A stretch of 64,000 nt of DNA from Cyanidioschyzon merolae (Eukaryota): NCBI GenBank assembly GCA_000091205.1, contig AP006502.2; one strand, written 5' to 3'. A program made the translations under genes and the position numbers. The notes below the pieces were generated by a model. It made no database searches. It saw only the letters and a program-made list of their open reading frames with translations, and was not told the DNA's origin. Of this stretch, positions 34,810 to 63,697 are shown piece after piece; the stretch's first letter is position 1; each line of letters starts with the position of its first letter.

Positions 34810-35317
34810 GCGCTCAGTAACTACAACGAGTTGCGTGGTAGTGCGACCTTAAACTCGACTGGAGTGCGCTGGCACCACGTGCTCTAGAAATGCACGTTTC
34901 AGCCACAGAGACGCGTAGTGACGCCTCAGTAGCGCGTACTAAAACTCCGCGGCAGCTTGAGCCTATGCGTAGCCAAGAGAGTCGGCGTGAGCAGCTTTCT
35001 CGATGAAACCGCTCCTGCAAGATCGTGCTCGATTTTGATTGCAGTGCAAAGCAACCCTTTGAAAAGTTAGGGAATAAGTCGGAGTCTGTGGTGTTGCACT
35101 CCCCAGAACTAAGCGTTATCTCTTGGTGGTCCAGCGGGTAGGCAGCGTGATTAACGCATCGGCGCACGCCTCTGTAGGCTGGACCAAAGGCTCCGCGCCG
35201 CGGACGTCGCCGTGCTGCACAGATCCCGCTGATCGATCTGCTTGATGACGCTCGATCGCTACGAGGCCGTGCGTGATGCGGTTTTTTCGGATATTGCCTT
35301 GTAGGATCGATATTTCC

Positions 35318-43837: not shown

Positions 43838-44985
43838 TGTCATATATAGAACTGGGGCAAACCTAGCTGCACCGCTGTCGGAATGAAGCGGAAAAGGCCT
43901 GTACAACAAGTGCGCAAACTAGTGTTCTGCACTGTGTTCCAATTATCATTTAAACCAGTCTTTACGGTTTGTGTTCCTTGGCTGGTTCCTTTTACACGCT
44001 CTCATCTCGGGGTTTAAAAATGATGGCATGCCCTTTCACATCAGATTCGTTGTCAATATTCGGAGGATAATGAAGGCAGCACTCAAGTCCCGATTTCCCT
44101 GTTTCCGGCAATTGCAAACGCGTTTCGTGTAAAGGCAAATGTTGCGATCTACGACTCTTTCTCGTATACAGCCTTGGTGCATCCTTTACAGCAGCGACAC
44201 TATGGCATGGTCAGGTGTTCCCGTATGTCCTTCAAACCTATTCCTCCGATCGCCGCCCGGTGGCGCGACAAACGCTTAGTTCGTCGCCCGGTACATGCGC
44301 TTAATGGACACAGCGGCTACCAAGATGCTCTCCTCTGTTTAAGCGCCCAGTGCCGCAGCCCACGATCACGGGCTCTTTCGGGGCCACGCACTCGGCGCGT
44401 ACGCTGTCCGCTACACACGCAAGCACACGTTGCTCCATTCGATAGAGATTTTCTGGAACGCGCTGCTGTCCATCATAGAGCAATGCTCGGAAGCGGAAAT
44501 CCACGCTGCATATCAAGTCGAGAAACGTCGTTCTGTCCAGGCTTGGCTCTGACAGAGCTCTGACGCAGTTGCCACCGAGAGCGATCGCTGCGGTGACGCA
44601 AGCCCCAGTACGAGACACGTTTCCACGCAAACGGAAGAGATGGAAGCCTCTGGCTGCATGCCCGGCAGGATGCATCAAGCTGATGTGGAATGCGGTCTCA
44701 CCGTGGGCCACACTGAGAATAGGATTTGCGTTTCGAACGGCTCGAGTATTTGAAGCGACAGTCTCAGTGACCTTGGGGCATGAGCTTGTGAACCAGTGGT
44801 TCAGAGACGACGTCGGGTATTTCTCCTGCTCAATACGACGCTGGCGATTGCTGGGCGCTCGAGCTGCCTTGAAACCGGAGATCGAAACGTGAAAAAAGCG
44901 TGATTGTAGCATGCTACGCGGGAAGAGAGAAGAAAAGCAGCGGCTTGGACGTGCGCATTGGACAATGATGCCAGATGGCTTAAAA
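43838..44985 (-). mobile_element. Family B copy B5 (inverted), with an intact 203/224-aa ORF (44301..44912).
   Basis: The ORF is near-identical to those at 59828..60502 and 62545..63219. The reverse-complement terminus 'tgtcatatatagaactgg' is at about 43838. Confidence 0.6.
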
Positions 44986-45245
44986 ACGTTTATATGAACT
45001 CGCCGAGAATCGCCTTGATTCCAGTGACGGGACGCTTTCCAGCTGCAAAGAATCGAAACAGCGACTTTTAAAAGATAACCGATAATTAAAAAGTTCCAAA
45101 CGGATGTGTAAACCCCTCATGTTGGAATTCGAATATCGAAAGTGCATATCTGACATCTCGTTCAGAAAAGCATCGAGAGACACCACCGCCTCTCGAAAGT
45201 CGAACGACGTCGCCGGCAGTGTACAGTAGTGGCAAGTGACCCGCC

Positions 45246-47383
45246 CTAGACGAAACGTCTCCGACTGACGTGCAGACGCCTGCCCGTCTTTTTGGACCGG
45301 CCATCTACTACTGCTTCCATCTTCTTCTCATATAATTCAACTTTGAGAGGTTGTCCAATAAAGTTTTCTCTTGTCAGCTCTGGAGGTCTCTTCTCCAGCA
45401 CCGCACATCTCCTTATATTGATTGCGGCGATAAAATCTCGGTTCACAAACTCCATACGTTTCTTGCCATCATTCCTTGTACTCACCAGTGCAAGCAATCC
45501 TCGAACATTCTCCCTCCTTTCCATTTCCTCTTCCGTCAGCGGCCCGTACTTTTTTATGTTCCCAGGGCTCTATTGGCAATTTTCTATCTCCACTCTCTGA
45601 AGTACGCACCCCAGTTCATGGTGTGTATACGAGGTTCGAAACTCATCAACAGGTATCGTGGCGAAACGCCTTGCGCATTCCCTGTACGTTCTTGTCGTTG
45701 GAGTTGGCGTACAACCTTTTTTAGGCGCCAAGCACCCTGCCCCGTACGCTACTACGAGCCTTTGAGTCTTGTCCTCTTTGACGGCACTCAACTAATTGAA
45801 AAAGTTGGCAAACGCCCGCTGCCTCCCACCGTATAGATTCATTCGCAAACGAGCCCACCAGGGCTTGGTATACTCCTCCCACAGCGCATCCCAATGGGCA
45901 ACACGAACTTGCATGAATTTCAGAAAAGCTTCAAAGTCCGCTCCGCGGCTCGTCACCTCGCTCAAAGCTTCCAGGTGATCCTTCATTCCTGCATTCCGTA
46001 TCTCAATTTTCTTCCTCGCATTCGTTATACCCGATTCTCGATAATATATCGCTCTCGAGAGCCTCATCAGACGCATGTCTTTCTGACGTAAGTTGCCGTC
46101 AGCACCATCTTCCGCACGCTTCGGTGCTGCGATGGTTATGATATTCGTATTCCCGGGGCCCGCGCCAACGACAAGGTCGTTATCCTGCACTTTCTGTGTA
46201 TCAGGGCCCGCCTTCTTGTTTTCTTCATGCTTCGCCGCGCCAACCATAAAGGCGTTATCCTGCACCTCCTGCATCACAGGATCCGCTTCCTTCCCATCTT
46301 CATCCTTCGTCACGTCAACGACAAGGTCGTTATCCGGCATCATCTGCGTCGCATGATCCTCCTCTTTGTTTTCTTCATGCTTCGCCGCGTCAACGACAAG
46401 GTCGTCATCCTGCACTTCCAGTGTGGCAGGTTCGGCGTCCTTCTCATCTTCATGCTTCGCCGAGGGCGGGACCAAACGATCTGCCTTCAATCGCCGATTG
46501 TGTGCACACAAGTCTACTCCATCGGTTTCGATCATCCCAGTGAATACATTTTGTTTGCTCTTTTTGAGACGTTTGAAATCGAAGATATTCTTCCAGTGCG
46601 TCTCCCGGTTTTCGCCAGTGAAGTCCTCCCTGCGAACATTGAACTCCGGACAGATCTCCCTCATGATGCCATGAGGGACGCCAGAGTCGATAGTCACAAA
46701 ATGTGACTTGGTGTTGCATAATGGAACAACGTCGAAGCGCTTCCCCATTAGGAGAGCCTTCCGTCTCTCCCATTCTTCATTTTTTCCTCACTCAGCTTTA
46801 TTTCCGCCTTGCGTTCGAGCTCTCGGTCCAGAAACGCGAACTAACATAGGATGAGGCGATAGTATCTTTCCTTACCTTTTTTCAACTTTGATATCTTGTC
46901 TGTTGGATTCACCAGCCCCATGACTGCACGGTCTTCTTGTATAAGCGCACGGATTACAGAAGCTTCATTCGTGCTCTCTTTTGACGCCTTCTTGTCGACA
47001 AATTCGACCTCATCTTCATGCTTGCGATCGTTCGTGATGCCATTGATAATCGCCCATTTTCCTTTGCAAGAGATGCCCGAGTAGAGTGCAAACACGGCGC
47101 GTATCATGAAACGTTCGAGGTTCATTGTCAAATAGTTCTTCAGATTCGTGAGGTACTTCATCGCCCCATAGTCGTAAATATCCCGGTCACACTTGTATCG
47201 AGTACCGTTGAAGCTGTAAAAGGGATGTTTTTCGTGCAAGGCATGCACTAGCACATTTTCCCCCTGCGCTTCCGCTGTACCAAGTATCAGGTGAGGAATA
47301 AAGGTCTTATCGAAAAACACGTCCGGAATCTCGACCGTTTCCATGTACGTCACGTCTTTGTAGATCTCCCTCGCCAAATGCAT
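45246..47383 (-). mobile_element. Near full-length TnpB/Fanzor-like (OMEGA-family RuvC nuclease) element. The coding region (~690 codons) is disrupted by one frameshift (about 46841/46748) and two in-frame TAG codons. Best treated as a recently inactivated copy, or an intron-containing one.
   Basis: Minus-strand reading 47383->45246 gives, in order: RuvC-I-like '[11 protein letters not shown]'; an acidic tandem-repeat insertion; RuvC-II-like 'LSEVTSRGA'; 'ALWEEY...LRMNLYGG...RLVVAYGAG'; 'IPVDEFRTSYTHHELGC' (TnpB 'VdpxyTSqxCsxCG' position, zinc finger degenerate); RuvC-III 'KKRMEFVNRDFIAAINI'. The whole region is AT-richer than the flanking host genes. Confidence 0.6.
46100..46450 (-). repeat. 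Coding tandem repeat (about 75-78 bp / 25 aa, about 4 units) inside the Fanzor-like ORF.
   Basis: Protein repeats '[21 protein letters not shown]', '[59 protein letters not shown]'. The + strand ORF track shows the same periodicity (HKGVILH... / NDKVVI...). Confidence 0.7.
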
Positions 47384-48829
47384 CAGTCCCGACGACGCCT
47401 TGACGATACTCTTAGAGTACGAGTCGACACGTTATTTTTATAGCATCTCGCAACTTTTCCCTGTAGGGATCCTTGATATGTTCAAGAAAACAGGTCTTCA
47501 CCACCATCTCGTCGTAGAGTTGTCTTCCCCGCGCAGCCTTCGACTTAGGGCATCCCCCTTTCGGTTCTTCTCCTCTTCCATTTCTTCTGGACTCGGCACT
47601 GTTCTTTGTTTATTTTTATGGCAGCTGGAGACCCTGAGCCTCCAAGATCGTGGACTTGCTTTTTCATAACTTTCCTTTTTTTAGTTTTTTTTTGAAAAAG
47701 AACACTCTTTGAACGCTTCTGTTATATTCTGCGAATAAACACTCGAGTGTTTTTACTTGAGGTTTGAAACACGACTGAGATGAAACAATATATTTTGTTA
47801 CGATTCCAATGCAAATACAAGTCTTACGTTAGAACAAAACGCTACTGATTACGATCGCGTTTCCCTTCAACGGCGACATGCGCGTCGCGTCAGTTGACTG
47901 CCTGATCTCCTTGGTGCGCTCACCGAGCGGGATGCAAACTAGTCACAAACTTTTTATCAAAGATCAACTATCTTAAAAGCCCCACACACCACGCCCGCCT
48001 AAGTGGTCCAATTTTTCCGGAGAAGCTCTGAAAGTGGGTTAACACGAATGTTTGGGCGACGAGGAAGGAAGCCCACTCCAGGGACCTTGACCGCAACGAA
48101 CGGAGGGGCAGAGGCAGTAGCAGAGAATGATGACGAGAATTCGAAGTAGTTATCCGCTGCTCTCGAAACAAGGCTGCAGGTTCGGGCGCAAATCCTGGAT
48201 CCATCCTTGAATTCGGGCTCAGTTTTATGGTCTATCTTGGTTTCTACCTCAACTTTGGAAACAATCTCGGCGGATACTTTGGAAGACGGCTGACAGCATG
48301 TTCGCCGTCGAAGCTGACATAAGCGACTTGCCCGCCTATGTGTTTGGGGAGCGGATACGAAACCGCTGAAAGGGTGGTTTGTAGACTGTTCCCAATGGTT
48401 TAGGGTGGCTTCACGCGTCCGGCAAGATAAAGGTCGCATTTGAATCGACCTTGACTAATGTACTTTTGATTCTATGCTAGCGCTGCGGCAGATACGCAAT
48501 GAACGACTGGAATGCAGGAGGCAATGGTGGCTTGTGCGCTCACATACCCCGTGGAGGGTGCATCTAAATCGACCTTCTAGTCGGAAGGTCCAGCGAATCG
48601 GATACGCACACTGGCACATTGCGCTTTCTGCGCTTACCCACTGTGGTGGGTGTCAAGCACAAACCCGCATTGCCAACCGACAACAACGCATTCCATGCAT
48701 GATCACGAAGGAGAGAGGCGGCTCCCAGAATGTATCCTAACAGCCAAGTTTCTCCAGCGTGTCGTGCAGCGAAGGCAAGCTTGCATCCGCAGACTGTCCA
48801 AGCACAAACTGACGACGAGATCCGATTCT

Positions 48830-49140
48830 ACGTCGGGTGAAGCACACCTCGAGCCGACGCCCTCTGTGGTATAGAAAAGCTGTTCCAGCTCCATGAACTA
48901 TCTGCTCCAGCATTTAAGGTGCAAAGGCGGACACGGAAAGGCAGGTAGTAGGCACACAAAATATGACGTGTGAAACGACCAGAATATCCGAGAATAAAGT
49001 CTGGGTAATGGAGCTTGGAGGCAGGGCGTTTGATGGATACTTTACAGTGCACTGAAAAAACACAAGAAAAGTAAGAAGAAAAATGTACATAATCGGAGAA
49101 CGCTGGCCTAAGTAAACGTTTTGTCGATGAAAAAAATACG
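48830..49140 (-). repeat. Family C copy 3 (inverted), just upstream of the 49203 gene.
   Basis: The reverse complement carries 'catcgacaaaacgtttacttaggccagcgttctccgattatgtacatttttcttcttac...' and 'ctataccacagagggcgtcggctcgag'. Confidence 0.55.
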
Positions 49141-49202
49141 ATACAACGCCAACTGGGCATACGGTTGTATCTCGGGGACGGAGACTTTCGGCGCAGATTC
49201 CC

Positions 49203-51428
49203 TTGCGAAAAAGCACCGCTCTCCGTACTTTTCCGGAAACTCTGGTTGGACAGATGATGAACGGGGCGTGGTGGCAAGAGGCTGTGCTGGACCATAACAG
49301 GGGAGCAGCCGCGCTTGAAGAGCTCTTCGATCGGGGCACCACAAGGACACCAGGGGTCGTGCTTGCGCATGAGCGTAGGCTTCGCGAGCTCAATAGCACC
49401 TTGCACACCTGTTTGCAAAAGTTGCACGCTTTTCGTAAGGCAGCAGAGCAGCTTCCCGCAGAAGAGAGGCGTCGCTTGCTGGTAACGCTTTGGCGACAAA
49501 CCTCAATCATCCACTTTAACCGAGCACTTTTAAGGCTGTTCAACGGGGACGTGTTCGAAAGTCGCCTCGAAGCGCAGACGTCCTTTCGTTGTGCGAGAAG
49601 CGCTGCAGAGCTCCGTCTGGTCGGAATGCTAGAACCGACACCGACCATCGAGATAGAGCAGCCGCATACTCGTTTTGGTGACGACGCCGACATGATGTTT
49701 TCAACAACTTTGCCGGCGGACCTTGGTTGGTCCACTGCAGATGCCGCCCTTGCCCTGGAGCCAGCACTTTTGTTGGTATCTTTATGGATGTGTTCTGGAA
49801 ACAGCGAGGATCTAGTATCTGCGGAGATGTACTGGGAATGCAATGTAGCGCCACTGGTGAGTCTGCTGCAGAAGGCAACACCCCTATCTGACGAGCAGCT
49901 CTCAGCCAAACTTGGGAAAGTCCAAATCCTCCAGACGTTGCTAGAGTGGCGCAGAGGTTGCCGCTCCGCAGAGCACTTCAAGAAACTCTCGGGATCTCCT
50001 CAGGCGGCATACTTGAAAATGATAGGCGCATTCTTGCTTGGTGATCGGCGTGTAGCCGCTTCCACAATTGAGACATACGGGTCTGGTTACCGCCACGAGG
50101 ACGCGCTGCGGCTCGCAGAACGTGTCGACACTCGATCGCACTGCGCGAGGACAGGGTACACACCCAGGAACGGTGCACCGCGAGGTGATGCCCACGTGCT
50201 CTACCAGTCAAAGGCATTGATGCAGCGAGGTGACTGGAATGCTGCCATTCGTCTACTGAGAGCCCTCAACGAGAAAATGCTGTCAACTGTGGGTCACGTG
50301 AACGCGTCACTGGCTAGCGATCGACATGCGAGGCGAGAAATATCAGTGACGTCTCCAGATGACCCCGAGGTGCGATCACGGGGTCTCGACGAGGTGCGCG
50401 CGTCGAGCAAACCCCTCGATGAGAGCGCGAACGAGAGGCTGCCCACTAATCGACATGAATTCGTCCAAACGACATGCACGGAAGCTCGAGCACCCTCGAG
50501 CTTGATAATGACAAAGCTGGGATTTACCCAAGGAGATCGTGGCGTGGTCTGGGCATGGAAAACAGCGCCCTCCGAGGCACGTGCTCTGCTCTGTGCATCT
50601 GCATTAGCGACTGCCCTAGCGTGTGTTCGTCGATGGGATGATTGTTGGTCGGTTTATCACGAATTTCGACGCCGCTGTGGATGGAATTTATGGGCCGACA
50701 CGAGTATCAGCTTCCTACGGGGACTGGTGGATGACTGGCGGCGTACACTGCAGACCGCTCACGCACAGATGCTGCTTAGCTACAGCGAAGCGCTGTTGCA
50801 TCTGGGATTTCGAGAGCAAGCTTTGAAAGTTCTTCGCAAGTTCTGGTCACAATACGGGGAAATCGATTGGGATCCAGCGGTGCACATGCACTTGCGAACA
50901 CGCCACGCCATTCTCCAGGCAGAGTGCGCTATTCACGGTGGTGAAGCGCCTGAGACGATACGCGCCTGCCTCACTGAAGCGCGAATGCATCTGGCTGCCG
51001 GTGCCGCATCGTTGCCAGCTGCGACGCAGGGTATGCATGAATACCTTGTAGGGATGATTACGAATGCGGAGGCCTTGATTGCACTCACCAGCGGCACCGC
51101 ATGCAGTCAGTCGATCCTGGGTCTGCTGGAGACGGCCGCCAAAAAGTCTCGTTATCATACTGCCGTGGTTTACAACTTGACGCTCTTTATTTGGGCAAGA
51201 ATGGGTCACATTACGCGAGCGCTACGCTTATGGCTCCATCACCGAGGTATCGATCCGGATCACCCCAATGCCGCAGACAACGACAAGCTCAGGGCGGACG
51301 CCGCTCCAGACGCGCAGCTGGAGCCCTTCGAAACACTGACACGAGCTTGCATCGCACTGCGACAGCAGCAAATCGCCGACGAGCAGGCGCTCCAGAATCT
51401 CGACTTCCTCGAACAGATCATCAACTGA
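49203..51428 (+). CDS. Hypothetical helical-repeat protein (741 aa), possibly PPR/TPR-like.
   Basis: Long ORF. Degenerate ~35-aa helical repeats (e.g. 'LYQSKALMQRGDWNAAIRLLRALNEKM', 'IWARMGHITRALRLW'). The antisense 355-aa ORF 48914..49981 is judged spurious. Confidence 0.45.
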   Translation: MRKSTALRTFPETLVGQMMNGAWWQEAVLDHNRGAAALEELFDRGTTRTPGVVLAHERRLRELNSTLHTCLQKLHAFRKAAEQLPAEERRRLLVTLWRQTSIIHFNRALLRLFNGDVFESRLEAQTSFRCARSAAELRLVGMLEPTPTIEIEQPHTRFGDDADMMFSTTLPADLGWSTADAALALEPALLLVSLWMCSGNSEDLVSAEMYWECNVAPLVSLLQKATPLSDEQLSAKLGKVQILQTLLEWRRGCRSAEHFKKLSGSPQAAYLKMIGAFLLGDRRVAASTIETYGSGYRHEDALRLAERVDTRSHCARTGYTPRNGAPRGDAHVLYQSKALMQRGDWNAAIRLLRALNEKMLSTVGHVNASLASDRHARREISVTSPDDPEVRSRGLDEVRASSKPLDESANERLPTNRHEFVQTTCTEARAPSSLIMTKLGFTQGDRGVVWAWKTAPSEARALLCASALATALACVRRWDDCWSVYHEFRRRCGWNLWADTSISFLRGLVDDWRRTLQTAHAQMLLSYSEALLHLGFREQALKVLRKFWSQYGEIDWDPAVHMHLRTRHAILQAECAIHGGEAPETIRACLTEARMHLAAGAASLPAATQGMHEYLVGMITNAEALIALTSGTACSQSILGLLETAAKKSRYHTAVVYNLTLFIWARMGHITRALRLWLHHRGIDPDHPNAADNDKLRADAAPDAQLEPFETLTRACIALRQQQIADEQALQNLDFLEQIIN

Positions 51429-51803
51429 TCGCAGCGAAATATCGACGTCGCCCTGCCCGGACAATGTGCTGTGTTTCCGAAAGGCATCCGAAACCGCGTC
51501 GTCGAAGTCGGCACAGCGTGTCGAGCCCGACGAGAGCATTCCCACGAGACAAGACCTGCGTGATATCTCCGCATCTAGACTAGGCAATACGGCAGACGTT
51601 GTTGAACGACAACTGCTGTGCTGAACGCGCGGCTCGATCGATCGGCGATTCGACTCGGGCACGCGTACGTCATGCCCCCCGCCGTGTTGACCCGCTCGCA
51701 TTTATATATGTACTTACATAGCGACAGCTCGCGGTTCGCTCGGCTCCTGGCGTCTGCCACGCAGACTTGTACACCGAGTCGTTCGGTGTGGCGGCAAAGG
51801 CAC

Positions 51804-53792
51804 TCAGAGCGCCGCGCGCAAATGCTCTTTGCGGGCCGCTCCCGCGGAAAGTTTCTCGGCAATATGGCTGAATTGTTTCGTGTTCTGCTCAATATACTTT
51901 CGGGTAACTTGTACGAGTTCCTCTAGCTTTTCTATCCGGGACTCGTCCATACTCAGCGGCGCTACATCGGGGTTCAGACGGAAATACATATCGCGTCCAT
52001 GCGTCAGATCCAGGATCGCGTGGTGCACAGCCTCGGTATCGGTCGCGCTGCTCAACAGGGTGCGCGCCAACTCAAAGATGCTATCACCACTGGAGCCGGC
52101 AGTGGCTACTCGCTGGTTTGGCTCGCTCACGAGACGCGGATCGCAACGCCCGGTTCCAACACTTACCAACACATCAATCGGTAGGTCTGGCCAGAGCAGC
52201 TTGGCCTCGTGGCACGCAATAGCCGTCGGGTTGTTCACCAGGATTGCTCCGTCACAGAACGTTTCGCTGCCGCAGCGGAAAGCGTCGAAGTAGGTCGGTG
52301 CTGCTGATGTCGCGCGCAAGGCCTCGTACACGCGATGGTGGGCTGCATATCGATACCTCGGCTTCGATTCGGGTGGCGGGGCGTAATTTGTATGAAGAAA
52401 CGGGGCCGCGGGATTCTCACTTACAATCGTCGAGACACAGAATACGCACGGCGGATCGTCAGCGATATGCGCTACTGCCCGCGAATCAATGAGGTTCATT
52501 TCACCGGCGAACGCTCGAAAGAAGCGCTCGAGCGCCGCGCTGTCGTAGTAGCCACGACTGAAAAGGAGGCGACCCATGCCCAACCAGCGAACAGCTCGAC
52601 TGGTGGGCGTGCTGAAAACCTTGCCACAAAACTCCCTGTAGAGAAGTTCGCACTCTGCGAGGGATTTGCGAGCGATGCAGAGGGCCACGGCCAAGATACC
52701 GCCGGCTGAGGTACCAGCAACGAGGTCGAATAGCTGGTGGATAGGTTGTCCGGTGCGTCGTTCCAGCTCTTTGAGGATTTCAATCGAGACAAGAGCTCGG
52801 GCGCCGCCGCCGTCCAGCGTGAGTATCCGGATACCGTGCGGGCGAGGTCGTCGGAACAAGTTCGGGAGCCTGCCGAAGATGCGCTCGCGCGCCGCTCGTC
52901 CATGATCACCGTAGCGACGCTCGAGGCCAAGTGCTGCTACCAGCCGTCGACAAGCAGCAGTTACACGATGTGCACCGAGCAACTTCAGTTTCGGTGTTGG
53001 CGCGTCCGTGCCCGATGCATTTCGATGCGCTGCCGTTGGCTTGACCAGGAACTCTTTTGACGGAGTTTCCTGAAGGATGCGATCCAAACGCTGAACAATA
53101 CCACTCGTTGCGACGATGAGCAACGCAAACTCTCGATCACATGCGGCAATCGTGCCGAGACAGAGGGCGCTGCTCTCGACGCAGTTTGCGTCAGCGGCAG
53201 CGGCGAATATCCTGCAGAACTGTTGGAGCAGGGCACTGCGACCCACCTGATGCAACGTATCCGATTGGCACCAGTTGAGAATCGTGTGCGCGTGGCTCAA
53301 AGCCGGCGCCAGGAGCCTTTCATGGATACGAGACTGGGTACCTCCAAGTGGTCGGCGTTCGTGGGTAAGGTTTGGAGGAATGCCGTCCCCCGCGTGTCCA
53401 ATAAGAGCAGAAAAGCAGCGATCAAGCAACGCGAAACCGCAAGAGCTGACGAAAGCAGCTAGTAAGCTCCTATCCCCGCCGACCACAAGCTGTGCCGTAT
53501 CCGAGAGCACTGTTAAAAACTGGCGAACTGTTTCTATATGCCACTCTGGTGTGTCGCGAAGTCGCGAGAGCTCCCGCCGCACACGCCTGCAATCGTTGCC
53601 CGGCATTTTCTGCCCGCAGAACGAGGAACTCACACGGCCTACTACCAGCTGCCGTTTACATAGCGCAACTGGTAACCCAGCAAAGGCTCTTGAGTGCAGT
53701 GGTCGACCAAACTGCGCAGTGTGCAAAAGTCTCAACAACCCGTTCAGCCAGTAAAACGGGTATGCTAATGTGCCGAAGCCAAACTTTCCCAA
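51804..53792 (-). CDS. Patatin-like phospholipase (iPLA2-like) with a ~290-aa helical N-terminal region.
   Basis: 'ILTLDGGGARALVSIEIL' (oxyanion GGGxR), 'VAGTSAGGILAVAL' (GxSxG), 'DGAILVNNP' (catalytic Asp). Confidence 0.85.
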   Translation of the reverse strand: MGKFGFGTLAYPFYWLNGLLRLLHTAQFGRPLHSRAFAGLPVALCKRQLVVGRVSSSFCGQKMPGNDCRRVRRELSRLRDTPEWHIETVRQFLTVLSDTAQLVVGGDRSLLAAFVSSCGFALLDRCFSALIGHAGDGIPPNLTHERRPLGGTQSRIHERLLAPALSHAHTILNWCQSDTLHQVGRSALLQQFCRIFAAAADANCVESSALCLGTIAACDREFALLIVATSGIVQRLDRILQETPSKEFLVKPTAAHRNASGTDAPTPKLKLLGAHRVTAACRRLVAALGLERRYGDHGRAARERIFGRLPNLFRRPRPHGIRILTLDGGGARALVSIEILKELERRTGQPIHQLFDLVAGTSAGGILAVALCIARKSLAECELLYREFCGKVFSTPTSRAVRWLGMGRLLFSRGYYDSAALERFFRAFAGEMNLIDSRAVAHIADDPPCVFCVSTIVSENPAAPFLHTNYAPPPESKPRYRYAAHHRVYEALRATSAAPTYFDAFRCGSETFCDGAILVNNPTAIACHEAKLLWPDLPIDVLVSVGTGRCDPRLVSEPNQRVATAGSSGDSIFELARTLLSSATDTEAVHHAILDLTHGRDMYFRLNPDVAPLSMDESRIEKLEELVQVTRKYIEQNTKQFSHIAEKLSAGAARKEHLRAAL

Positions 53793-53923
53793 GTGACGTT
53801 CGTGGATATATTCCCACTGGTAGCCGGTGGTCGACCACGCGCGCTAAACTTGGTACCCGAGGTCCTGTGGCGTTCCGAAGTACTCGCGTCGTCGTCGTCG
53901 TCAACGGAACCCAGTACACTTGT

Positions 53924-53992
53924 GCCTGCCTGCCTGCCTGCCTGCCTGCCTGCTTGCCTGCCTGCTTGCCTGCCTGCCTGCCTGCCTGCCTG
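53924..53992. repeat. Microsatellite (CCTG)n, about 16 units with two T variants.
   Basis: 'gcctgcctgcctgcctgcctgcctgcttgcctgcctgcttgcctgcctgcctgcctgcctg'. Sits just 3' of the patatin gene and just 5' of the short TnpB-like derivative. Confidence 0.95.
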
Positions 53993-54039
53993 TCGCAGTG
54001 CTTTCGATAGGATATTGCTGGCCGAAAAAGCGCCTCCGT

Positions 54040-54700
54040 TGCAGAAAATGTGCCATCCCGCGCAATCTCGCACCGGATCGCGCTCGATCGTTGAAGCATG
54101 CTGGTGATTCACGTCAATGATGTGCCACATTCAGGTGCATCTCATTGTATGCTTTTTCGCAACTTTTAGCAGATACGGTCAAAGTGCGTCCACTTGAAGC
54201 AATAAAAAATCCAAGGGAAAGGTATGGACATGCAATTCGAGGATCCTGGAGGCTCGGTGTCGCCGAGTACCGGAGAAGAAACGGAAAAAACGTCTTCTCG
54301 CTGATCATCGAGCGAAGAAGAGCAAGCGAAGAAGAAACGGGAGATAGGCGAGAAAAAATGCGTTTGCCCGACTGAACGATAATGAGACGCTAGTGGCACT
54401 GGGGACATGAGTCCGAGCAATACTTGCAATGGTGCGTTCCACCAGAGGCAACAAACGCATGGAATTCGTGAACCGAGACTTGAATGCCGCCATCCATATC
54501 AGACGAGGAGTGGTGCTGAAGACGAGACTCGCACAGCTGATGTAATCCAGCTCTGGGGCGCAGCTTCTCAGGCTCGAAGTGTGCCCGGATCAATCGAATC
54601 CGATCGCAGGCGACCAGTCAGAAAAGGCTGGGAGTCGTTTGTAAGTGGAAAAGTGTTTACCCTCCGTGATCGTGGGACGTTTTCCGTTCTACTGGCGATA
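54040..54700 (+). mobile_element. Second short deletion derivative of the TnpB-like family. It starts immediately after the (CCTG)n microsatellite.
   Basis: 'GAFHQRQQTHGIREPRLECRHPYQTRS' overlaps the frame encoding 'NKRMEFVNRDLNAAIHIRRGVVLKTRL' (54440-54540). 3' block '...aatcgaatccgatcgcaggcgaccagtcagaaaaggctgggagtcg'. Homologous to 5700-6250 throughout. Confidence 0.5.
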
Positions 54701-55837
54701 TGTGGCAGCTCTGACTGACATCTTCTTGACTCAAAAGGGTCTGTATGCGTTGATGGCGTTGGAGCAGGCGCGCTCGCCTGGTATTTGATATCCGGGGGAT
54801 CGAGTGACGAATATCTCTGGGGGGAAGCATGCCTGTTGGCTGGTGAGCCCCTTGAAGCGATGCTGCGGAACGACAGACGATCTCCCGGATGCCGATATCC
54901 AACGCGCAACTGGGCATCCCTTGTGGCTGTGAACGATTAAGCGCCCAAAAAATTTGAATGAATCCAGGATGCAATCTTTGATGCATGGGGTAGTGATATG
55001 GACGCTATGTACATCGGAGCTAGACCAAGGACTAGGGATTGTGCAGGTCGCGAAGATGCCTTGTAGAGCTGCTGAGTCGTTCCGGTGCTGGTGGTCTACA
55101 CAGAGATGCACGCCGTGCAGGACCTGAGCGCAAGCACCCGAAGCACATTTCTTCTACCTTATTAGTCGTATGGAACCTGCTTCCAATGGTGTTACGGAAT
55201 CCATGGACAGGACCTGTTCCCGGATGTGGCATTCGCCGGCTATTGGGAGAAGCGCTGCAGCGCTGCGCTTTGGGCGCGTTGCTGCGTTCTGCATCGTGCA
55301 GCGGCATTTGGGCGGGCTTCGAGCATGCTCCGACTTCCGCTGCACGAAACTCACTTGTCAAGGGTTGCCATAATTTTTTTAGTACTTCCTTGCATCTGTT
55401 ACGTCACGGTGAGTCTCGACGCAAACGTTGCCGGTGCGTCTTCCAGCCGTTGGAAGCGGCTTCGGGCTTGCCGATCGTCCGAAACGACTCCCGCCCGACA
55501 AGTCGTTTGAAGTTTTGCTCGCAAACCAATTCGCCAGAGCGATCCGTTGCTGGTTTCAGCTCGCAGAACGAGCCAGCGGATAGCGACTTGGTCGACAAGT
55601 GGCCTCGTTTTGAGCGTACCAGCGTTGGCTTTGACACACCCGTCCATGCACGTGCCATTCGCTTTCTCACGATGAAAATCTATGTACTCGTCGTTGACGC
55701 GGCCATAGACCATCATCTGGACTGCGCGTTGGTTCGGGCGTATCACTGTGGAGAAGCCTTCAAGATACACCCGATGGCGATTTTATTGCTTTTCCTACTT
55801 GGAAACTGCGAGACCAAGCGATACGACCTTTGTTCAT

Positions 55838-57007
55838 TTAGGTTTCAACCTCGACGGCCACCATGTTGTACGCCTCCTCACGTTGCTTGTCGAAGAGCGC
55901 CGAGGTCAAGTAGCGTTCACCGAACGATGGAATGATGACGACGATATTCTTGCCTTTCATCTCGGGTCGCCGACCAAGCTCGAGCGCCGCAACCACAGCA
56001 GCCCCACTGGAGATACCACACAGAAGACCTTCTTCAACTGCGAGACGTCGTGCCATTTCAATTGAATCCATGCTCGTAACCTGTTTCACCTCGTTGTATA
56101 TCTTGGTGTCCAAAATTCCTGGAACGAAACCAGCTCCAATGCCTTGTATTTTGTGCGGGCCCGGTCGGCCGCCACTGAGCACCGGTGACTCCGCCGGCTC
56201 TACCGCCATGATATAGACATGCGGGTTTTGCTCGCGCAGGTAACGGCCAGCACCAGTAACCGTGCCACCGGTCCCGACTCCAGCGACAAAAGCATCCACC
56301 TTGCCACCGGTTGCGGCCCATATCTCAGGCCCAGTTGTCTCGTAGTGCGCCTTCGGGTTATCCGGATTATTGAATTGTTGAAGCATGTACGCATTTGGAG
56401 TGGTGTGAAACAACTGCTCGGCTTTGGCAACAGCTCCTTTCATTCCTTTGGCGGCTGGCGTGAGTACCACTTCGGCGCCGAAAGCGCGCAGCACCATTCG
56501 CCGCTCTATGGACATAGAGTCTGGCATCGTCAGAATCAGACGGTAACCACGAGCTGCAGCGAGATATGCCAGGGCAATTCCCGTATTGCCTGATGTTGGT
56601 TCGATGAGCACCGTTTTTCCGGGCTGGATGTCGCCCCGCTTTTCAGCCTCGACGATCATGTACTTGCCGATCCGATCTTTTACGGACGAGCAGGGCTCCA
56701 TGGACTCCAGCTTACATAGTATATGCGCTTGGACCCCCTCCTCTTCCGGAATTTTCTTGAGCTCCACAATCGGTGTATTCCCGACTAGATCGGACACGTC
56801 GCGAGCCAACGCGACCGAGGGTGGCGCAGTCAAGGCCAGCTGCACGCGCTGGCGAGCACGCGGTGAACGACGAGCGTATCCGAGAATCCTGGTCTGCTCG
56901 GGCTTCGCCCGCACAAACGTACTATTCTTTTTTCGATTCCGGAGAGTAGCTTGCGCAGCTTTGAGTGAACACGGCACCAGAACGTACATTGCGTTAGACA
57001 CAAGCAT
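55838..57007 (-). CDS. OASTL: Cysteine synthase / O-acetylserine (thiol) lyase (PLP-dependent) with a ~60-aa N-terminal presequence.
   Basis: '[10 protein letters not shown]', PLP lysine in 'CSSVKDRIG', '[12 protein letters not shown]', '[15 protein letters not shown]', '[10 protein letters not shown]'. Confidence 0.95.
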
Positions 57008-57714
57008 ATAACACCCGGAAATCCATGGACGATGCGCGAGCCGAGATTCTCAACGAGAGCGCAGCTCGAGGGGTCGCCGCCTGCGCTCGAGCGAAGCGCT
57101 CAAAAAGCTGTACGCAAATACGCAGTTCATGAGGCGTTCTTTAGTGGGCCTTGATGCGGACTGTCAAGGTATTCGGTTCCCTATTTGTTTCGTGTGCAGG
57201 GCCAATGTACATGATTTTTTCTAAAACGACTGTTGCTCGCTTTTCTGGTCAGAGCTTCCATATGCTGCTTACACTGGAGAAGCGAGCACTTTTGTAACCA
57301 GGTTCAACTGGAGCGACCCGCTCGCCGTGAACCTGGAAATATCTCCAGCTTTAGCCTAGTACTTTTCGGCGGTTGAATGGCATGGTTTCTGTATACTTTC
57401 GCTGAAGTTAAAGAGGCGGACTGCTTACCCATGCTTTGTCTGCAATAACAAGTTGGATCTTTTCAGGAGTTTCGCGCTGGAATCCATCTGCTTCTTTCCG
57501 TATTCGGCATGCCGCCACATAACCGGAGGCAACGTCATGTCGACCGTTTTAGAGTTTGTGTAAAAGAAGTCGCATGAGATCGCAACCATGGATGTGGTTC
57601 CATTGGAACCGGCAGAGAAGATACCGAGGTGTCTCAGCGACGCGCATACGATCCACACGTCGATATCGTCGGTGAAACAAACAATGCCCCACGACCATGG
57701 AGGGTCAATATATG

Positions 57715-57830
57715 AACATTCACAGGCGCTTCCCAGCCTTTTTCACGGTTGGCCTGCTATCGGTTTCAATTTCTCACTGCGCACTTGGAGCTTGTGAGGC
57801 TGTACCACGAAGTTAGATCGCGTCGACTCC
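57715..57830 (-). ncRNA. Candidate right-end / omega-RNA-like scaffold of the TnpB-like family. Example copy; equivalents at about 325-440 (-), 1150-1262 (+), 6150-6250 (+), 14300-14400 (+), 45205-45330 (-).
   Basis: A conserved ~60-nt block overlaps the last codons and stop of every copy. A stem-loop differs in sequence between subfamilies but stays paired. Flanks diverge 10-25 nt downstream. Confidence 0.3.
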
Positions 57831-58075
57831 TCGAGTCTCGTCTTCAGCACCCTACATCTCCTGATTTTGATGGAAATGTTGAAGTCTCGGTTTTCGAACT
57901 CCAAGCTTGTCTTGCCGCTGGTTCTACTTGCCAATGCATGGTGTCCTCGAATACGTGCCCTCGGTGCCATTTGCTGTTCTGTCAGCTCTCCGTGCTTTTC
58001 TATCGTCGAAGCGCTCCGCTGCCTTCTCTTCTATCCCAAACCTCTGAAGTGTAAACCACAGCTCATCCCGTATTT
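57715..58075 (-). pseudogene. TnpB/Fanzor-like 3' fragment (about 360 bp), 5'-truncated.
   Basis: ORF 57743..57970 'LEFENRDFNISIKIRRCRVLKTRLEESTRSNFVVQPHKLQVRSEKLKPIAGQP*'. 3' block 'ccgtgaaaaaggctgggaagcgcctgtga' immediately after the TGA stop. Homology to the 350 copy ends about 10 nt later. Confidence 0.6.
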
Positions 58076-59579
58076 GTTTCTAAAATGAACCCACTTCCTA
58101 GTGCCCTTTGGTGTGGACCTTCCCTGAGGGGGACACGCTTGCGGCACAAAGGCGGAATAGACACCGTCCTGGTCGCGTGCCGAAAGCTTCTGTGAGTCGC
58201 CCAGTGGCGCGATCATTACGTTTCAGGATACAGAACGCTCCTTCGGTGACGTTGAACCACGGAGAGTATGGAGCAATGGAAAGCAACTCTACCTCCCAAT
58301 AGCATCGGCAAAAGCTTGCACGCAATAAAAATGGTGAAATGGCGCGTTGTCGTCTGGAAAGACGTCTCCAGACGTGGGGAGAAGGGTCTTCAATGATTCG
58401 GCAAAGTGGGTGTTGTTGTATGAGCCTTCCCTACGAGCGAAACTGAGGCCGTCAAATATATCCACTGCAGCTGGAGCCGATGATGATGCCTTAGCTCTTT
58501 TCGAGTTCGATCGTACATACAACGGACCCCCTGCTCCGCGAGTACCCATATACGCCCCGACCGTATCGCTCGGACGAAGTCTCACTGACTGGCAAAACAA
58601 ACTGACGTCACTTTGCTTCATATCGATCGTGACATTCCAGGAATTCTCCAGTCGTAATTTCGGTGGAAGATAGCCGTGATTGAACTAGGACGCTTTTGTG
58701 CCAGGCTCCTAGAGTTTACAGGTCCACACGGACAAGCGGTTGAATAACAGAGACGCCCATGATGGCTTCTATACTCGCTTCAGCTTTCCATAAGCTCATC
58801 AACGGTTCGTTTTCTATCATTGACCTCAATCGCGCTTTGAGAATATCGGTTTCTGGCGCGGAACGCATAGCCTTCTTCTTGTCGGTGTTCCTCGAGTATC
58901 TGATTACTATGGTATGACGGACCTGAAGCAGGAATGCAGTCCTCCTTCCATTGTCCAGTAAAGAGCAAATATCCAATAGGCAAGTGCTCTACGATCTATA
59001 CGATATACTGCTTTGTGATTTCGATCTCCTGCTGGAGACTGCGAAAAAGCATGTGATGCCATGCAGCGGGGCGACGGAACAGAGTTGAGTTGGAAGACTA
59101 TTCGATGGACGGGCGTTCAATCTCCAAAGGCTTTTTGCTGCATATCCCAGCAGCTAGCTCATAGACTTGGATCTGTATCGAAGTTTTGGAGGGTTTCACG
59201 GAGAACGCTTGAACGCTGCAGGCACAGAGCGGGCATAGAACTCCACGAGAGAGACTATCGAGACGAGGTGTGATAAATCGCGTAGCGCCGCTCTTCCACA
59301 ACATCGGCAATATCATTTTGCAACACAGCGAACGGCAATTGAGGCAGTTTTTTGTGTCAGTCGTGTATCTTCCATGTAAAGCCTTTGCAGGATATCGGTT
59401 TGCCATGAGTCGCTAGCACGGGGCGTTGTCCACGACGGCCGAGCTTGACTTGAGGCGCGCCGGCTCTCGTTTGCTGGCCCTTGATTAATACTGAAGCGCG
59501 GTCAACTCGCAATCATCGTGCAAGCATAAAATCCACCCGTGAATTGATAGCGCTGTTCCTGAATTGAGATATTTTCCGA

Positions 59580-60835
59580 ACGTTTCATAAAATGGACAGC
59601 GACGAATTCATGTTGCATCAATATGGGCTTACGGGTGAAAAAGATTTTTTAGGATTCTTTCTCGTCTCTTTGAGATATGGCGCCTTCGACGCTTTGCGGC
59701 TGGAATTCGTTCGGTCGTCGGAATCTGGATGATTTGCGACCTCATTGAGAGGATTCGTTAAGGAACCAAAATCATCATCCAATGCATACGTACAATCCTC
59801 TACTCTTCCTCTTTCGTACCGCGTAGCATGCTACAATCACGCTTTTTCCACGTTTCGATCTCCGGTTTCAAGGCAGCTCGAGCGCCCAGCAATCGCCAGC
59901 GTCGTATTGAGCAGGAGAAATACCCGACGTCGTCTCTGAACCACTGGTTCACAAGCTCATGCCCCAAGGTCACTGAGACTGTCGCTTCAAATACTCGAGC
60001 CGTTCGAAACGCAAATCCTATTCTCAGTGTGGCCCACGGTGAGACCGCATTCCACATCAGCTTGATGCATCCTGCCGGGCATGCAGCCAGAGGCTTCCAT
60101 CTCTTCCGTTTGCGTGGAAACGTGTCTCGTACTGGGGCTTGCGTCACCGCAGCGATCGCTCTCGGTGGCAACTGCGTCAGAGCTCTGCCAGAGCCAAGCC
60201 TGGACAGAACGACGTTTCTCGACTTGATATGCAGCGTGGATTTCCGCTTCCGAGCATTGCTCTATGATGGACAGCAGCGCGTTCCAGAAACTCTCTATCG
60301 AATGGAGCAACGTGTGCTTGCGTGTGTAGCGGACAGCGTACGCGCCGAGTGCGTGGCCCCGAAAGAGCCCGTGATCGTGGGCTGCGGCACTGGGCGCTTA
60401 AACAGAGGAGAGCATCATGGTAGCCGCTGTGTCCATCAAGCGCATGTACCGGGCGACGAACTAAGCGTTTGTCGCGCCACCGGGCGGCGATCGGAGGAAT
60501 AGGTTTGAAGGACATACGGGAACACCTGACCATGCCATAGTGTCGCTGCTGTAAAGGATGCACCAAGGCTGTATACGAGAAAGAGTCGTAGATCGCAACT
60601 TTTGCCTTTACACGAAACGCATTTGCAACAGCCGGAAACAGGGAAATCGGGACTTGAGTGCTGCCTTCATCCTCCTCCGAATACTGACAACGGCATTGGA
60701 GGAACTGAGAAGAGTGGCGAATTTACACCCGGAGATAAACGAGAGGAAAAGGAAGCAGCCGCAGAACAACCCGCAAAGTGTGATGTAATTGATAATGGGA
60801 AGAGGCCCAAACCTTAGATTGTGTATCAGTGTTTG
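59580..60835 (+). mobile_element. Family B copy B6 with an intact 224-aa ORF (59828..60502). Directly upstream (3' side) of the PMM gene.
   Basis: 'ccttcgacgctttgcggctggaattcgttcgg', 'tttcgatctccggtttcaaggcagctcgagcgcc'. Tail '...gaggaaaaggaagcagccgcagaacaacccgcaaagtg...aaaccttagattgtg...ggtccggttacttttctttctgacatgag'. Confidence 0.65.
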
Positions 60836-61337
60836 TGGTCCGGTTACTTTTCTTTCTGACATGAGCGTACACGGCCGGTCCGATGCGAGTATTCGATGCC
60901 TTCCAACGATCGAGTACAGCGATGTTGCGTTTCGGGATTCCAGCTGGGTAGCGCCGACGGCATGGCACTTCCGCATCGATGCACCATCTCGTGAAGCATC
61001 AAAGAACAGATGCCTCCTTGTTCGGACAGATCTCATCACTTATTCGTTCGCTTTGACGAACACCCTCAAGGAATATGGCGGATGCCCGTCACATGCCAAC
61101 AGCTCTTGGCAGACAACAAGTCGTAGATCACGGCGGAAGTGCAGAGCATCGGAATACCACGAGCAACGCCAGTTGCTATGGTACATTGCGGACTCGCACC
61201 TCCGCTACGACGTTGCCCTATGTGCGCCAATGCCGCTGATTCGCCTCGAGCACTGCTGATATGGAAGCCTGCTACATTGCTCAGCGAGTTACGCGACAAA
61301 ATCATATCGAAACACAAAGCGGAGCCAGAGGCGACGA

Positions 61338-62123
61338 TCACGCAGCCAGCACCGCCGGATCCAACAGAGTCTCTATCTGCGGAAAGAGCTTCCGCAACAC
61401 TACGATGGTTTCCCCTGGATTCTGAACAGCGTACCCCTCAACTCTTGGATGCGAGAATATTTCCCAGTCGTTGCCCCCCTCAAAGCACTTGTCACCGATG
61501 AAAACAATCCGAGAATATTCCTTTTCAGGTAGGAACCGCAGCGCGTACTCTTTGGTCCATCCCTGTGGCATCACATCAAATGATATCTGGCCACCTATCG
61601 AGTATACGAAATTCAAGTGCTTGAAACGCTCCCGAAGATGCTCGATCATCTGCTCTCGTATGTGGTGTTCTTTGTCGTAGGCCTCGAACTCGTCTCGTTC
61701 CGCCTGAGAACAGTTCCGTCCAATCGGGCTTATATTAAGCATCCCGGTACGAAACTCGATAAACGTGCCTCTTTTCTGTGGAATCTTCAAGTCAGCTATA
61801 TAGTGCAGGCAAAAGTTGATAAACTCTTGCAGCTTCGCCTCGCCCACGGCCTCAAGCAGCGACGTCGACGCTAACAGCTCTCCGTGTTGGAACGTTTTCA
61901 GCCCGTTTTCTGCAAAAACATAGTCCACTTCTTTAAGAATTTCAGCGCCCAACTGCTCTTCGATCAGCCCTATTCGAGAGCCGCCAATGAAACCTACCGC
62001 AACCACCTGCAACAGCGCTCGGAGCACTGCGAGCACTTTCGTCGTTACTCGGTTCCGCGGTTTCGTGAGCGTTCCATCCACGTCAAAGAGTACTATCGTT
62101 CGAGAATCTTTGACTGTGGACAT
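61338..62123 (-). CDS. PMM: Phosphomannomutase (eukaryotic PMM, HAD superfamily).
   Basis: 'LFDVDGTLT', 'GGSRIGLIEEQLG', 'KRGTFIEFRTGMLNISPIGR', 'SIGGQISFDV', 'GDKCFEGGNDWEIF'. Collinear with human PMM1/2. Confidence 0.95.
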   Translation of the reverse strand: MSTVKDSRTIVLFDVDGTLTKPRNRVTTKVLAVLRALLQVVAVGFIGGSRIGLIEEQLGAEILKEVDYVFAENGLKTFQHGELLASTSLLEAVGEAKLQEFINFCLHYIADLKIPQKRGTFIEFRTGMLNISPIGRNCSQAERDEFEAYDKEHHIREQMIEHLRERFKHLNFVYSIGGQISFDVMPQGWTKEYALRFLPEKEYSRIVFIGDKCFEGGNDWEIFSHPRVEGYAVQNPGETIVVLRKLFPQIETLLDPAVLAA

Positions 62124-62299
62124 TGGACTCTGATGACCTCGCGGTGCAACGGAGTTGTGTATAATGGTTTAAACAACTTGGTGCTAAAGACCAAGGTGAA
62201 TGGCTGAGCGCAATAGCCGGTGTCCTTCTAGGACCGTGCCGGATGAAAATGGAATAGTGAACTGCTGGTTCTAATCATGCATTTCAATTTTTCCGAAAT

Positions 62300-63565
62300 T
62301 TTTAGATGTACAGCCTGGGCATTCAAAGTTCAGCAATGAGTGCTTGAGGATTCATACGTCGATTTAGGTTTCTCGGTCGACTTCTTCAGGTGGCTGCTCT
62401 GATTCTTTGCCGCTGCGCTCTGTTGCGGCACTGCAGTCAAGATGATTCGATCCGCGCTTTAGAGGAAGGGTTCGTTAAATAACTGAAATCATCATCCAAT
62501 GCATACGTACAATCCTCTACTCTTCCTCTTTCGTACCGCGTAGCATGCTACAATCACGCTTTTTTCACGTTTCGATCTCCGGTTTCAAGGCAGCTCGAGC
62601 GCCCAGCAATCGCCAGCGTCGTATTGAGCAGGAGAAATACCCGACGTCGTCTCTGAACCACTGGTTCACAAGCTCATGCCCCAAGGTCACTGAGACTGTC
62701 GCTTCAAATACTCGAGCCGTTCGAAACGCAAATCCTATTCTCAGTGTGGCCCACGGTGAGACCGCATTCCACATCAGCTTGATGCATCCTGCCGGGCATG
62801 CAGCCAGAGGCTTCCATCTCTTCCGTTTGCGTGGAAACGTGTCTCGTACTGGGGCTTGCGTCACCGCAGCGATCGCTCTCGGTGGCAACTGCGTCAGAGC
62901 TCTGCCGGAGCCAAGCCTGGACAGAACGACGTTTCTCGACTTGATATGCAGCGTGGATTTCCGCTTCCGAGCATTGCTCCATGATCGACAGCAGCGCGTT
63001 CCAGAGAATCTCTATCGAATGGAGCAACGTGTGCTTGCGTGTGTAGCGGACAGCGTACGCGCCGAGTGCGTGGCCCCGAAAGAGCCCGTGATCGTGGGCT
63101 GCGGCACTGGGCGCTTAAACAGAGGAGAGCATCATGGTAGCCGCTGTGTCCATCAAGCGCATGTACCGGGCGACGAACTAAGCGTTTGTCGCGCCACCGG
63201 GCGGCGATCGGAGGAATAGGTTTGAAGGACATACGGGAACACCTGACCATGCCATAGTGTCGCTGCTGTAAAGGATGCACCAAGGCTGTATACGACACAG
63301 AGTCGTAGATGGCAACTTTTTCCTTTCGATCCTTAGCGTTGGCAAGAACCTGAAGTAGCTGAGTCTGCACTTGAACGCTGCCATCATTATCCTTCGACTG
63401 CTGCCTTCGGAAAATGAGGGAACAGAGAAACCAGCGGATTCAAACTCGGAGGTAAGAAAGAGGAATAGGAAGCAGACGCATAAAAATTCATCAATAGCCG
63501 GTATTTATGATAGTGGGAAGAGAGCCAAACTTTAGCATCTACCCGGGAGTTAGGTAAGTCGATCC
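62300..63565 (+). mobile_element. Family B copy B7, near-identical to B6, with an intact 224-aa ORF (62545..63219). Lies on the other side of the PMM gene.
   Basis: Same blocks as B6. Terminus 'gatccgttctattctattctggcacgag' at about 63545-63570. Confidence 0.65.
62545..63219 (+). CDS. Family-B element-encoded ORF (224 aa), function unknown. It contains a 'KEPVIVGCGTG' block that aligns with the TnpB RuvC-I 'vvGIDLG' position, but the catalytic Asp is missing.
   Basis: Intact in three copies (also 59828..60502 and 44301..44912). In degenerate copies the 'PVIV(G/R).G' block changes mostly at third codon positions (cccgtgatcgtg / cccgtcatcgta / cctgtgatcgtc). Confidence 0.4.
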   Translation: MLQSRFFHVSISGFKAARAPSNRQRRIEQEKYPTSSLNHWFTSSCPKVTETVASNTRAVRNANPILSVAHGETAFHISLMHPAGHAARGFHLFRLRGNVSRTGACVTAAIALGGNCVRALPEPSLDRTTFLDLICSVDFRFRALLHDRQQRVPENLYRMEQRVLACVADSVRAECVAPKEPVIVGCGTGRLNRGEHHGSRCVHQAHVPGDELSVCRATGRRSEE

Positions 63566-63697
63566 GTTCTATTCTATTCTGGCACGAGTGTCGATCTGGC
63601 TTAGCTGTGCGCAGAGCCGCTGGCAACGCCTGTGCGGACACGGCTGCTTTGCGCGACGGTCTACAGGGCAGGTGCTTGGCTTCGCGTTGCGTTCAAC

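Follow-up and report, generated by a model that had tools for sequence, protein, structure and literature searches.

Ectopic gene conversion as the probable source of near-identical transposon relics beside the phosphomannomutase gene of Cyanidioschyzon merolae

Ectopic gene conversion and concerted evolution of dispersed repeats are familiar from yeast Ty elements and from mammalian duplicated genes and repeats. Inversions by non-allelic homologous recombination (NAHR) between inverted repeats are likewise well known, for example at int22h in human F8 and, mediated by insertion sequences (IS), in bacteria. The genome of Cyanidioschyzon merolae is known for almost no mobile elements, and efficient homologous recombination is well established in this organism from routine gene targeting. 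Here, we analyze a 64-kb stretch of the C. merolae 10D genome (hereafter the window; all coordinates are window positions), in which two copies of a dispersed repeat family, designated family B, flank the phosphomannomutase (PMM) gene. We report that ectopic gene conversion among three ancient, dead IS630/Tc1-type relics, the two flanking copies (B6 and B7) and a third, more remote one (Bx), probably explains the near-identity of these copies, and does so better than recent transposition or segmental duplication.

The repeats of C. merolae have been surveyed before. Nozaki et al. 2007 (PMC1955436) described 26 non-LTR retroelements, 8 class II elements related to bacterial transposases, and a 'novel interspersed repetitive element' in 253 copies, with a mean length of 3.2 kb and a truncated open reading frame (ORF) that bears weak similarity to WSSV WSV486. 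Mikulski et al. 2017 (PMC5405695) use the name 'WSV repeats' for this 3.2-kb element, and a 2022 preprint lists 1755 class II fragments assigned to Mutator, Helitron, CACTA or unknown. None of these three sources mentions a Tc1/IS630 family in C. merolae. Like the WSV repeat, family B is a dispersed, degenerate family with truncated ORFs in the same genome, and it is abundant (nine copies in 64 kb); the two, which we compared by description only, differ in length (3.2 kb vs ~1.3 kb).

An earlier reading of this DNA, made from the sequence alone, had proposed that two plus-strand family-B copies bracket a minus-strand PMM gene, and this is borne out by the Pfam match and by an exact protein match (Table 1). 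B6 and B7 occupy two intergenic regions, one on each side of PMM, and the 5' end of B7 lies ~150 bp upstream of the PMM start codon. The element limits proposed in the sequence-only reading (59580-60835 and 62300-63565) fit those of the nine-copy alignment, in which family-level conservation extends from about 59553 to 60870 in B6 coordinates, that is, over a unit of ~1.3 kb. The difference it quoted between the 224-codon ORFs of the two copies (hereafter ORF224), ...LLYDGQQRVPETLYRMEQ in B6 vs ...LLHDRQQRVPENLYRMEQ in B7, is exact. Its statement that B6 and B7 differ by a handful of substitutions holds for an 825-bp core with 8 differences and fails elsewhere, where identity drops sharply on both sides.

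B6 and B7 are direct repeats with a spacing of 2717 bp, and BLASTN aligns 59750-60817 with 62467-63535 at 92.2% identity over 1073 columns. Near-identity is limited to 59769-60593, with 8 substitutions in 825 bp; just outside this block, about 40% of the positions differ, identity being 61% in 59650-59770 and 64% in 60594-60820. Bx, a third near-identical copy that the sequence-only reading had not connected with this pair, lies ~15 kb away in inverted orientation, and its segment 44048-44969 (-) matches B6 59771-60692 at 97.3% over 922 bp and B7 at 97.0%. The edges of near-identity vary with the pair compared, falling at 59769 vs 59819 on the 5' side and at 60593 vs 60692 on the 3' side, and B6/Bx identity stays at 89-93% as far as 60692. 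The diverged ends of all three copies remain colinear with the family alignment. The other six copies in the window are 58% identical in the core and 57-62% at the ends, with no extra conservation in the core.

A sharp-edged block of 99% identity inside old, diverged elements is a signature of ectopic gene conversion. B6, B7 and Bx would have been old, inactive relics, already only ~60% identical to one another, as their ends still are, when non-reciprocal homologous recombination replaced ~0.8-0.9 kb in the interior of each by one shared sequence. The pair-specific tract ends given above point to more than one event, with at least two rounds of conversion, and we infer that these took place in situ. 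For comparison, we used about 35 contigs of related strains, 98-99.7% identical to 10D, which were fetched via PMM, ORF224 and cysteine synthase. The copy-specific tract edges are the same in strains ~1% diverged from 10D, so the conversion events would not be very recent. The resulting ~99%-identical blocks would now be substrates for crossing-over, which could produce a ~14.8-kb inversion between inverted copies, and deletion or duplication of PMM between direct ones. The locus resembles known cases of ectopic gene conversion in its sharp near-identical block within diverged paralogues, its pair-specific tract ends and the linkage of the copies (2.7 and 15 kb); it is unlike the typical case in that homology around the tract, at ~60%, is unusually low for the start of recombination.

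Several observations weigh against this explanation. Surrounding homology of only ~60% is a hard start for homologous recombination, and the first conversion would require either that the copies were once more alike or that a recombinant, mobile master copy took part. Our comparison covers the 64-kb window and the related contigs, and a fourth, donor copy elsewhere in the C. merolae genome is possible. The core roughly coincides with the span of the ORF, starting ~60 bp before its ATG and ending 91 bp after its stop codon, which pure conversion does not predict. At positions 60020/60123/60128, all three 10D copies have A/T/C and most metagenome copies have C/G/T, a hint of concerted evolution that may instead reflect collapse of repeats in short-read assemblies. 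Finally, the inversion described below is seen in metagenome assemblies, which are prone to mis-joins at repeats.

As judged from sequence comparison, family B consists of relics of IS630/Tc1-mariner-type DNA transposons with a DDE_3 transposase. The family consensus, taken as the majority of 12 frame-consistent segments, matches Pfam DDE_3 (PF13358, 'Tc1-like transposase DDE domain') with 36.3 bits (gathering cut-off 28.6; E 6.1e-9; profile positions 3-117/146), and one relative, P0028, matches the same domain in the same register at E 3.6e-4. Searches with the consensus found P0052 and P0055, both with a precomputed PF13358 assignment; P0055 resembles an IS630/Tc1-type transposase that is almost intact, and shows ...IVAIDETGF..., ...LMDNIAFHKS... 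and ...PPYSPWFNPIK as motifs together with an N-terminal helix-turn-helix-like region followed by DDE_3. Family B thus shares with IS630/Tc1/mariner elements a ~1.3-kb unit with essentially one transposase gene, a consensus above the DDE_3 cut-off, and the motifs ..IDETAF.., ..MDNIAFHKS.. and ..YSP..P.. in the expected order. It differs from them in the decay of its nine copies, in the GETAF of B6, B7 and Bx, and in the lack of detectable terminal inverted repeats or TA duplication.

The decay is extensive, and all nine copies in the window carry frameshifts and stop codons. B6, B7 and Bx have GETAF where the family has DETAF, and in B6 the second-D motif, MMDSSAFQK, has to be read in a different frame, with stop codons after it. 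The residues that we take to be catalytic are assigned from knowledge of Tc1/IS630 motifs; by this assignment, the first catalytic D appears to be lost in the three copies, which are predicted to lack an intact D-D-E/D triad and to be inactive. Comparison of 5' ends with reverse-complemented 3' ends gave no better matches than shuffled sequences in any of the nine copies, a weak negative that is expected for old relics, and the consensus ends yielded only an 11/12 match as an inverted-repeat candidate. The ends are too decayed to be placed to the base, and no TA target duplication is recognizable.

An exhaustive HMMER search recovered 33 distant relatives from hot-spring metagenomes, at 30-49% identity and with E values down to 1.5e-13 from B6; one of these, P0022, adjoins a nucleoporin gene. 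In a word-indexed protein search, ORF224 had one close cluster, P0018, a protein with a 1-nt frameshift relative to the 10D copies, and the same kind of search with a six-member profile found family members only. The predicted relatives read the same homologous DNA in different frames ('...RVPQILYRMEQRALACAADSV' and '...IAFHESPIEWNSVRLR' are two readings of B6 60280-60330), and conservation is therefore at the DNA level, the ORFs being largely accidental. B6 alone gave no Pfam match. ORF224, a hand-repaired B6 protein and the raw frames of the other copies, compared with Pfam and NCBIfam, returned nothing or sub-threshold DDE_3 matches (E 0.1-0.17); the consensus alone exceeded the threshold. 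Profile and consensus searches against PDB sequences gave nothing meaningful, and no match to the family consensus was found in viral contigs.

Translated searches with these relatives identified nine family-B copies in the window, six of which are strongly diverged and were seen only in this way. We considered whether the five copies previously labeled B1-B5 might be spurious, since BLASTN found only three copies, and dropped this idea after the translated searches gave six diverged ones. About nine 1.3-kb relics in 64 kb is a density far above that implied by the published transposon content of C. merolae, 0.7%.

A syntenic 21-kb locus of Cyanidiococcus yangmingshanensis (L017, VWRR01000001.1, 438372-459649) matches 10D in the order and orientation of its genes, namely RNase T, PMM, cysteine synthase, patatin, ZPR1 and photolyase. 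Its spacers are 210 bp between RNase T and PMM, and 956 bp between PMM and cysteine synthase vs 4.3 kb in 10D. No family-B relic was found in this locus with 37 family proteins and the consensus. Because the syntenic locus is without relics, B6, B7 and Bx appear to have been gained in the C. merolae lineage, three losses in Cyanidiococcus being less parsimonious. Colinearity with Cyanidiococcus also indicates that the 10D order is ancestral.

The related contigs suggest that the copies have recombined in nature. All of those that hold the core or its flanks (~35) map to the B6, B7 and Bx loci only, and most of them end inside the core, as short-read assemblies would. One (L002) crosses B7 in the 10D configuration, and three (L004, L006, L012) agree with the order B7-PMM-B6; none of the ~35 crosses B6 or Bx in the 10D configuration. 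Two contigs, L008 and a 44-kb contig behind L024, link the flank of Bx on the ZPR1 side (...44047), by way of an element, to the 5' flank of B6 (59770 downward to 48848). L003, L005 and L009 have the reciprocal junction, in which the 5' flank of Bx (45921-44970) is followed by an element and then by 60693 and on to PMM, and in L001 the ...44047 flank leads through an element into the 5' flank of B7 and PMM, so that Bx is joined to B7. At their ends, the hybrid elements match the B6, B7 or Bx type at 100%, as predicted from these junctions (compared: 44048-44969, 59771-60692 and 62488-63397).

Because the two reciprocal junctions occur in six independent assemblies, the ~14.8-kb inversion of 44970-59770 is likely to be real in wild relatives, with chimeric assembly as a less likely source of the junctions. 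Both reciprocal Bx/B6 junctions are what inverted-repeat NAHR produces, here known from metagenome assemblies alone. Family-B copies thus probably act as recombination substrates. The sequence-only reading had suggested that the direct repeats could mediate deletion or amplification of PMM and had proposed a strain comparison of PMM copy number. A role as recombination substrate stands in principle, and probably in fact, given the inversion junctions of Bx with B6 or B7; its PMM part finds no counterpart, as neither a junction of the B6 5' flank with the B7 3' flank, expected from deletion, nor a tandem-duplication junction occurs among the ~35 related contigs. Additional PMM contigs are too short for junction information, and deletion of PMM in a haploid would presumably be lethal. 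Several metagenome contigs stop at ~48.85 kb, beside a copy of a small repeat at 48940-49135.

Other accounts of the near-identity make different predictions for the ends of the elements. The sequence-only reading offered a very recent double insertion or a segmental duplication, and took family B to be recently active. If B6, B7 and Bx were young insertions of an active, possibly non-autonomous, family-B element, this would accord with a core 99% identical in three copies, with the membership of family B in a DNA transposon family, and with the absence of the copies from the syntenic locus of the sister genus; young insertions should, however, match to their termini, and over the outer ~200 bp at either end identity is just 53-64%, in sequence still colinear with the family and as diverged as that of any family members (background 57-62%). 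These diverged ends largely refute recent transposition, which also sits poorly with the lack of significant terminal inverted repeats, a frame-shifted transposase in which GETAF replaces DETAF (with loss of the first catalytic D by our own motif reading), and tract edges shared with strains ~1% diverged; we consider it improbable. The claim of recent activity fails likewise, the copies being dead transposase remnants without detectable terminal inverted repeats. Duplication of a block around PMM, or a tandem duplication followed by decay, would account for direct repeats 2717 bp apart, but the flank alignment that had been proposed as a check detected no duplicated DNA outside the B6 and B7 elements, the element ends diverge as much as the family in general, and the core occurs a third time, inverted, at a distance of 15 kb, all of which makes this scenario extremely unlikely. 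Recent insertion and duplication are both rejected on the same ground, since either would have left the ends near-identical too.

A functional core is a different kind of explanation, in which purifying selection, alone or together with conversion, maintains three copies of a domesticated gene of transposase origin (ORF224), of a non-coding RNA or of a regulatory module. The 224-codon frame is open in B6 and B7, some 200 codons are open in every copy seen, the core edges are close to the ORF edges, and Nozaki et al. 2007 (PMC1955436) report transcribed interspersed repeats in C. merolae, which may belong to a family other than B. Against this, 17 substitutions among 11 copies of ORF224 (three from the window and eight from related contigs) split 7:5:5 over codon positions 1, 2 and 3, 6 of the 11 have a 1-nt insertion at 60426, and Bx has a nonsense codon. 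The codon score of ORF224, 0.026-0.033 per codon, is in the range of shadow ORFs, compared with 0.09-0.20 in all 14 real genes tested, and its last third is out of frame with the ancestral transposase. ORF224 has no Pfam match; the whole window has no Rfam match at gathering thresholds and no tRNA by ARAGORN, and the core is therefore not a known RNA gene. Selection on the core is not the explanation because the six other copies show no extra conservation there. By these measures, ORF224 is a fortuitous open frame over a frame-shifted transposase pseudogene, rather than a constrained protein, and a functional core seems very doubtful. An artefact of the reference assembly behind the arrangement or the near-identity is highly unlikely: 0.8-kb repeats at 99% identity are a classic source of mis-assembly, and no metagenome contig crosses B6 or Bx as arranged in 10D, but the independent contigs L002, L004, L006 and L012 repeat B7-PMM-B6 with the same copy-specific ends, the gene order is colinear with Cyanidiococcus, and the reference is a finished genome (PMC1955436). 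Bolder readings are long shots: the three copies of the converted core, with their preserved ~200-codon frame, may be a gene or RNA of transposase origin, or Bx and B6 may drive a recurrent flip-flop of the ~14.8-kb block with regulatory consequences; if true, such a flip-flop in natural populations of C. merolae would be a counterpart, in a eukaryote, of invertible segments mediated by repeats. Ectopic gene conversion thus remains the reading that we prefer.

Table 1. Features of the window and identity by section of the element (strand and evidence where given)
Feature	Position	Strand	Evidence or remark
B6, decayed ~1.3-kb family-B element, IS630/Tc1-mariner-type DDE_3 relic	59553..60870	+	Conservation profile, nine-copy alignment; consensus DDE_3 match
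B6 near-identical (putatively converted) core	59769..60593	+	99.0% identical to B7, 8 differences; from 59819 on also 99% to Bx
B7, second family-B relic	62270..63590	+	Limits from alignment to B6
B7 near-identical (putatively converted) core	62486..63310	+	Alignment to B6
Bx, third family-B relic, inverted vs B6/B7	43870..45190 (approximate family-level limits)	-	Alignment
5' part of element	59650-59770 (B6 coordinates)		B6/B7/Bx pairwise 53-61%; family background 59-62%
Core	59830-60590 (B6 coordinates)		B6/B7/Bx pairwise 99%; family background 58-60%
3' part of element	60594-60820 (B6 coordinates)		B6/B7/Bx pairwise 58-64%, B6/Bx 89% to ~60700; family background 57-59%
Outside element, unrelated DNA			B6/B7/Bx pairwise 35-47%; family background not applicable
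ORF of B6, 224 codons, frame-shifted transposase remnant	59828..60502	+	
ORF of B7, 224 codons	62545..63219	+	3 amino-acid differences from B6 ORF
ORF of Bx, 203 aa	44301-44912	-	Shortened by stop codon
Phosphomannomutase (PMM) gene, 261 aa, single copy	61338..62123	-	Pfam PMM E 5e-87; exact match to C. merolae 10D BAM83279.1
~14.8-kb segment between Bx and B6 (cysteine synthase, patatin-like, other genes)	44970..59770		Apparently inverted in related natural strains; hybrid contigs
Family-B copy	6398-7485	+	Translated search
Family-B copy	10760-11711	+	Translated search
Family-B copy	14662-15478	-	Translated search; DDE_3 E 0.11
Family-B copy	27909-28918	+	Translated search
Family-B copy	30913-31893	+	Translated search
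Family-B copy	38341-39008	+	Translated search

The cysteine synthase ORF at 55838-57007 (-) is an exact match to C. merolae 10D BAM83278.1. The accession of PMM, BAM83279.1, directly follows this one in number, and the protein collection lacks the 224-aa ORFs of B6 and B7, which suggests that 10D has no protein annotated between the two genes. In this spacer, at 58098-58621 (-), two adjacent ORFs with '..DDNAPFHH..' and '..PYSPWFN..' match DDE_3 weakly and in colinear order (E 0.17 over profile positions 34-100 and E 0.098 over 109-135), and the segment is a second, distinct transposase relic. Near it, a repeat piece at 57720-58051 is ~72% similar to 354-684 and 923-1138.

That piece belongs to a dispersed repeat family (354-1256, 5731-6118, 45268-45638, 54149-54528 and 57720-58051) with 71-77% identity between copies. 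Two of its members lie just upstream of family-B 5' ends, 5731-6118 before the copy at 6398 and 45268-45638 beside Bx, and because of this placement, repeats of the 5731-6118 type and family B may together form a larger composite unit, which could be the published 3.2-kb repeat. The stretch 427-1180 forms a large imperfect palindrome, 79% identical to its own reverse complement over 765 bp. A small repeat family (9374-9669, 25354-25633 and 48940-49135) is 76-84% identical between copies.

Tandem arrays are present at 13821-14034 and 19895-20076 (105-106-bp units), 32645-32849 (two 102-bp units, 100% identical), 35315-35864 (~85-bp units, in a low-GC stretch of 45.5% at 35.3-35.9 kb) and 46160-46462 (~75-bp units). 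The region 45000-48000 combines a strong negative GC skew (-0.14 to -0.20) with a lower GC content. The ORFs 45792-46748 (-) and 46841-47383 (-), with codon scores of 0.19, are gene-like; a look-up of the exact product of the former found no gene on record.

The events proposed here, gene conversion and repeat-mediated inversion, are of known kinds in a new place and, as such, fairly ordinary. What they mean for C. merolae is that the near-identity at the PMM locus would reflect homologous recombination acting on old relics, not recent transposon activity. Two by-products of the analysis are that an abundant repeat family of this genome can be assigned, on the strength of its consensus, to the IS630/Tc1-mariner superfamily, and that, compared with 10D, a ~14.8-kb inversion mediated by repeats is probably present in wild relatives. 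These findings would be of interest mainly to those who use C. merolae as a model of genome structure and gene targeting.

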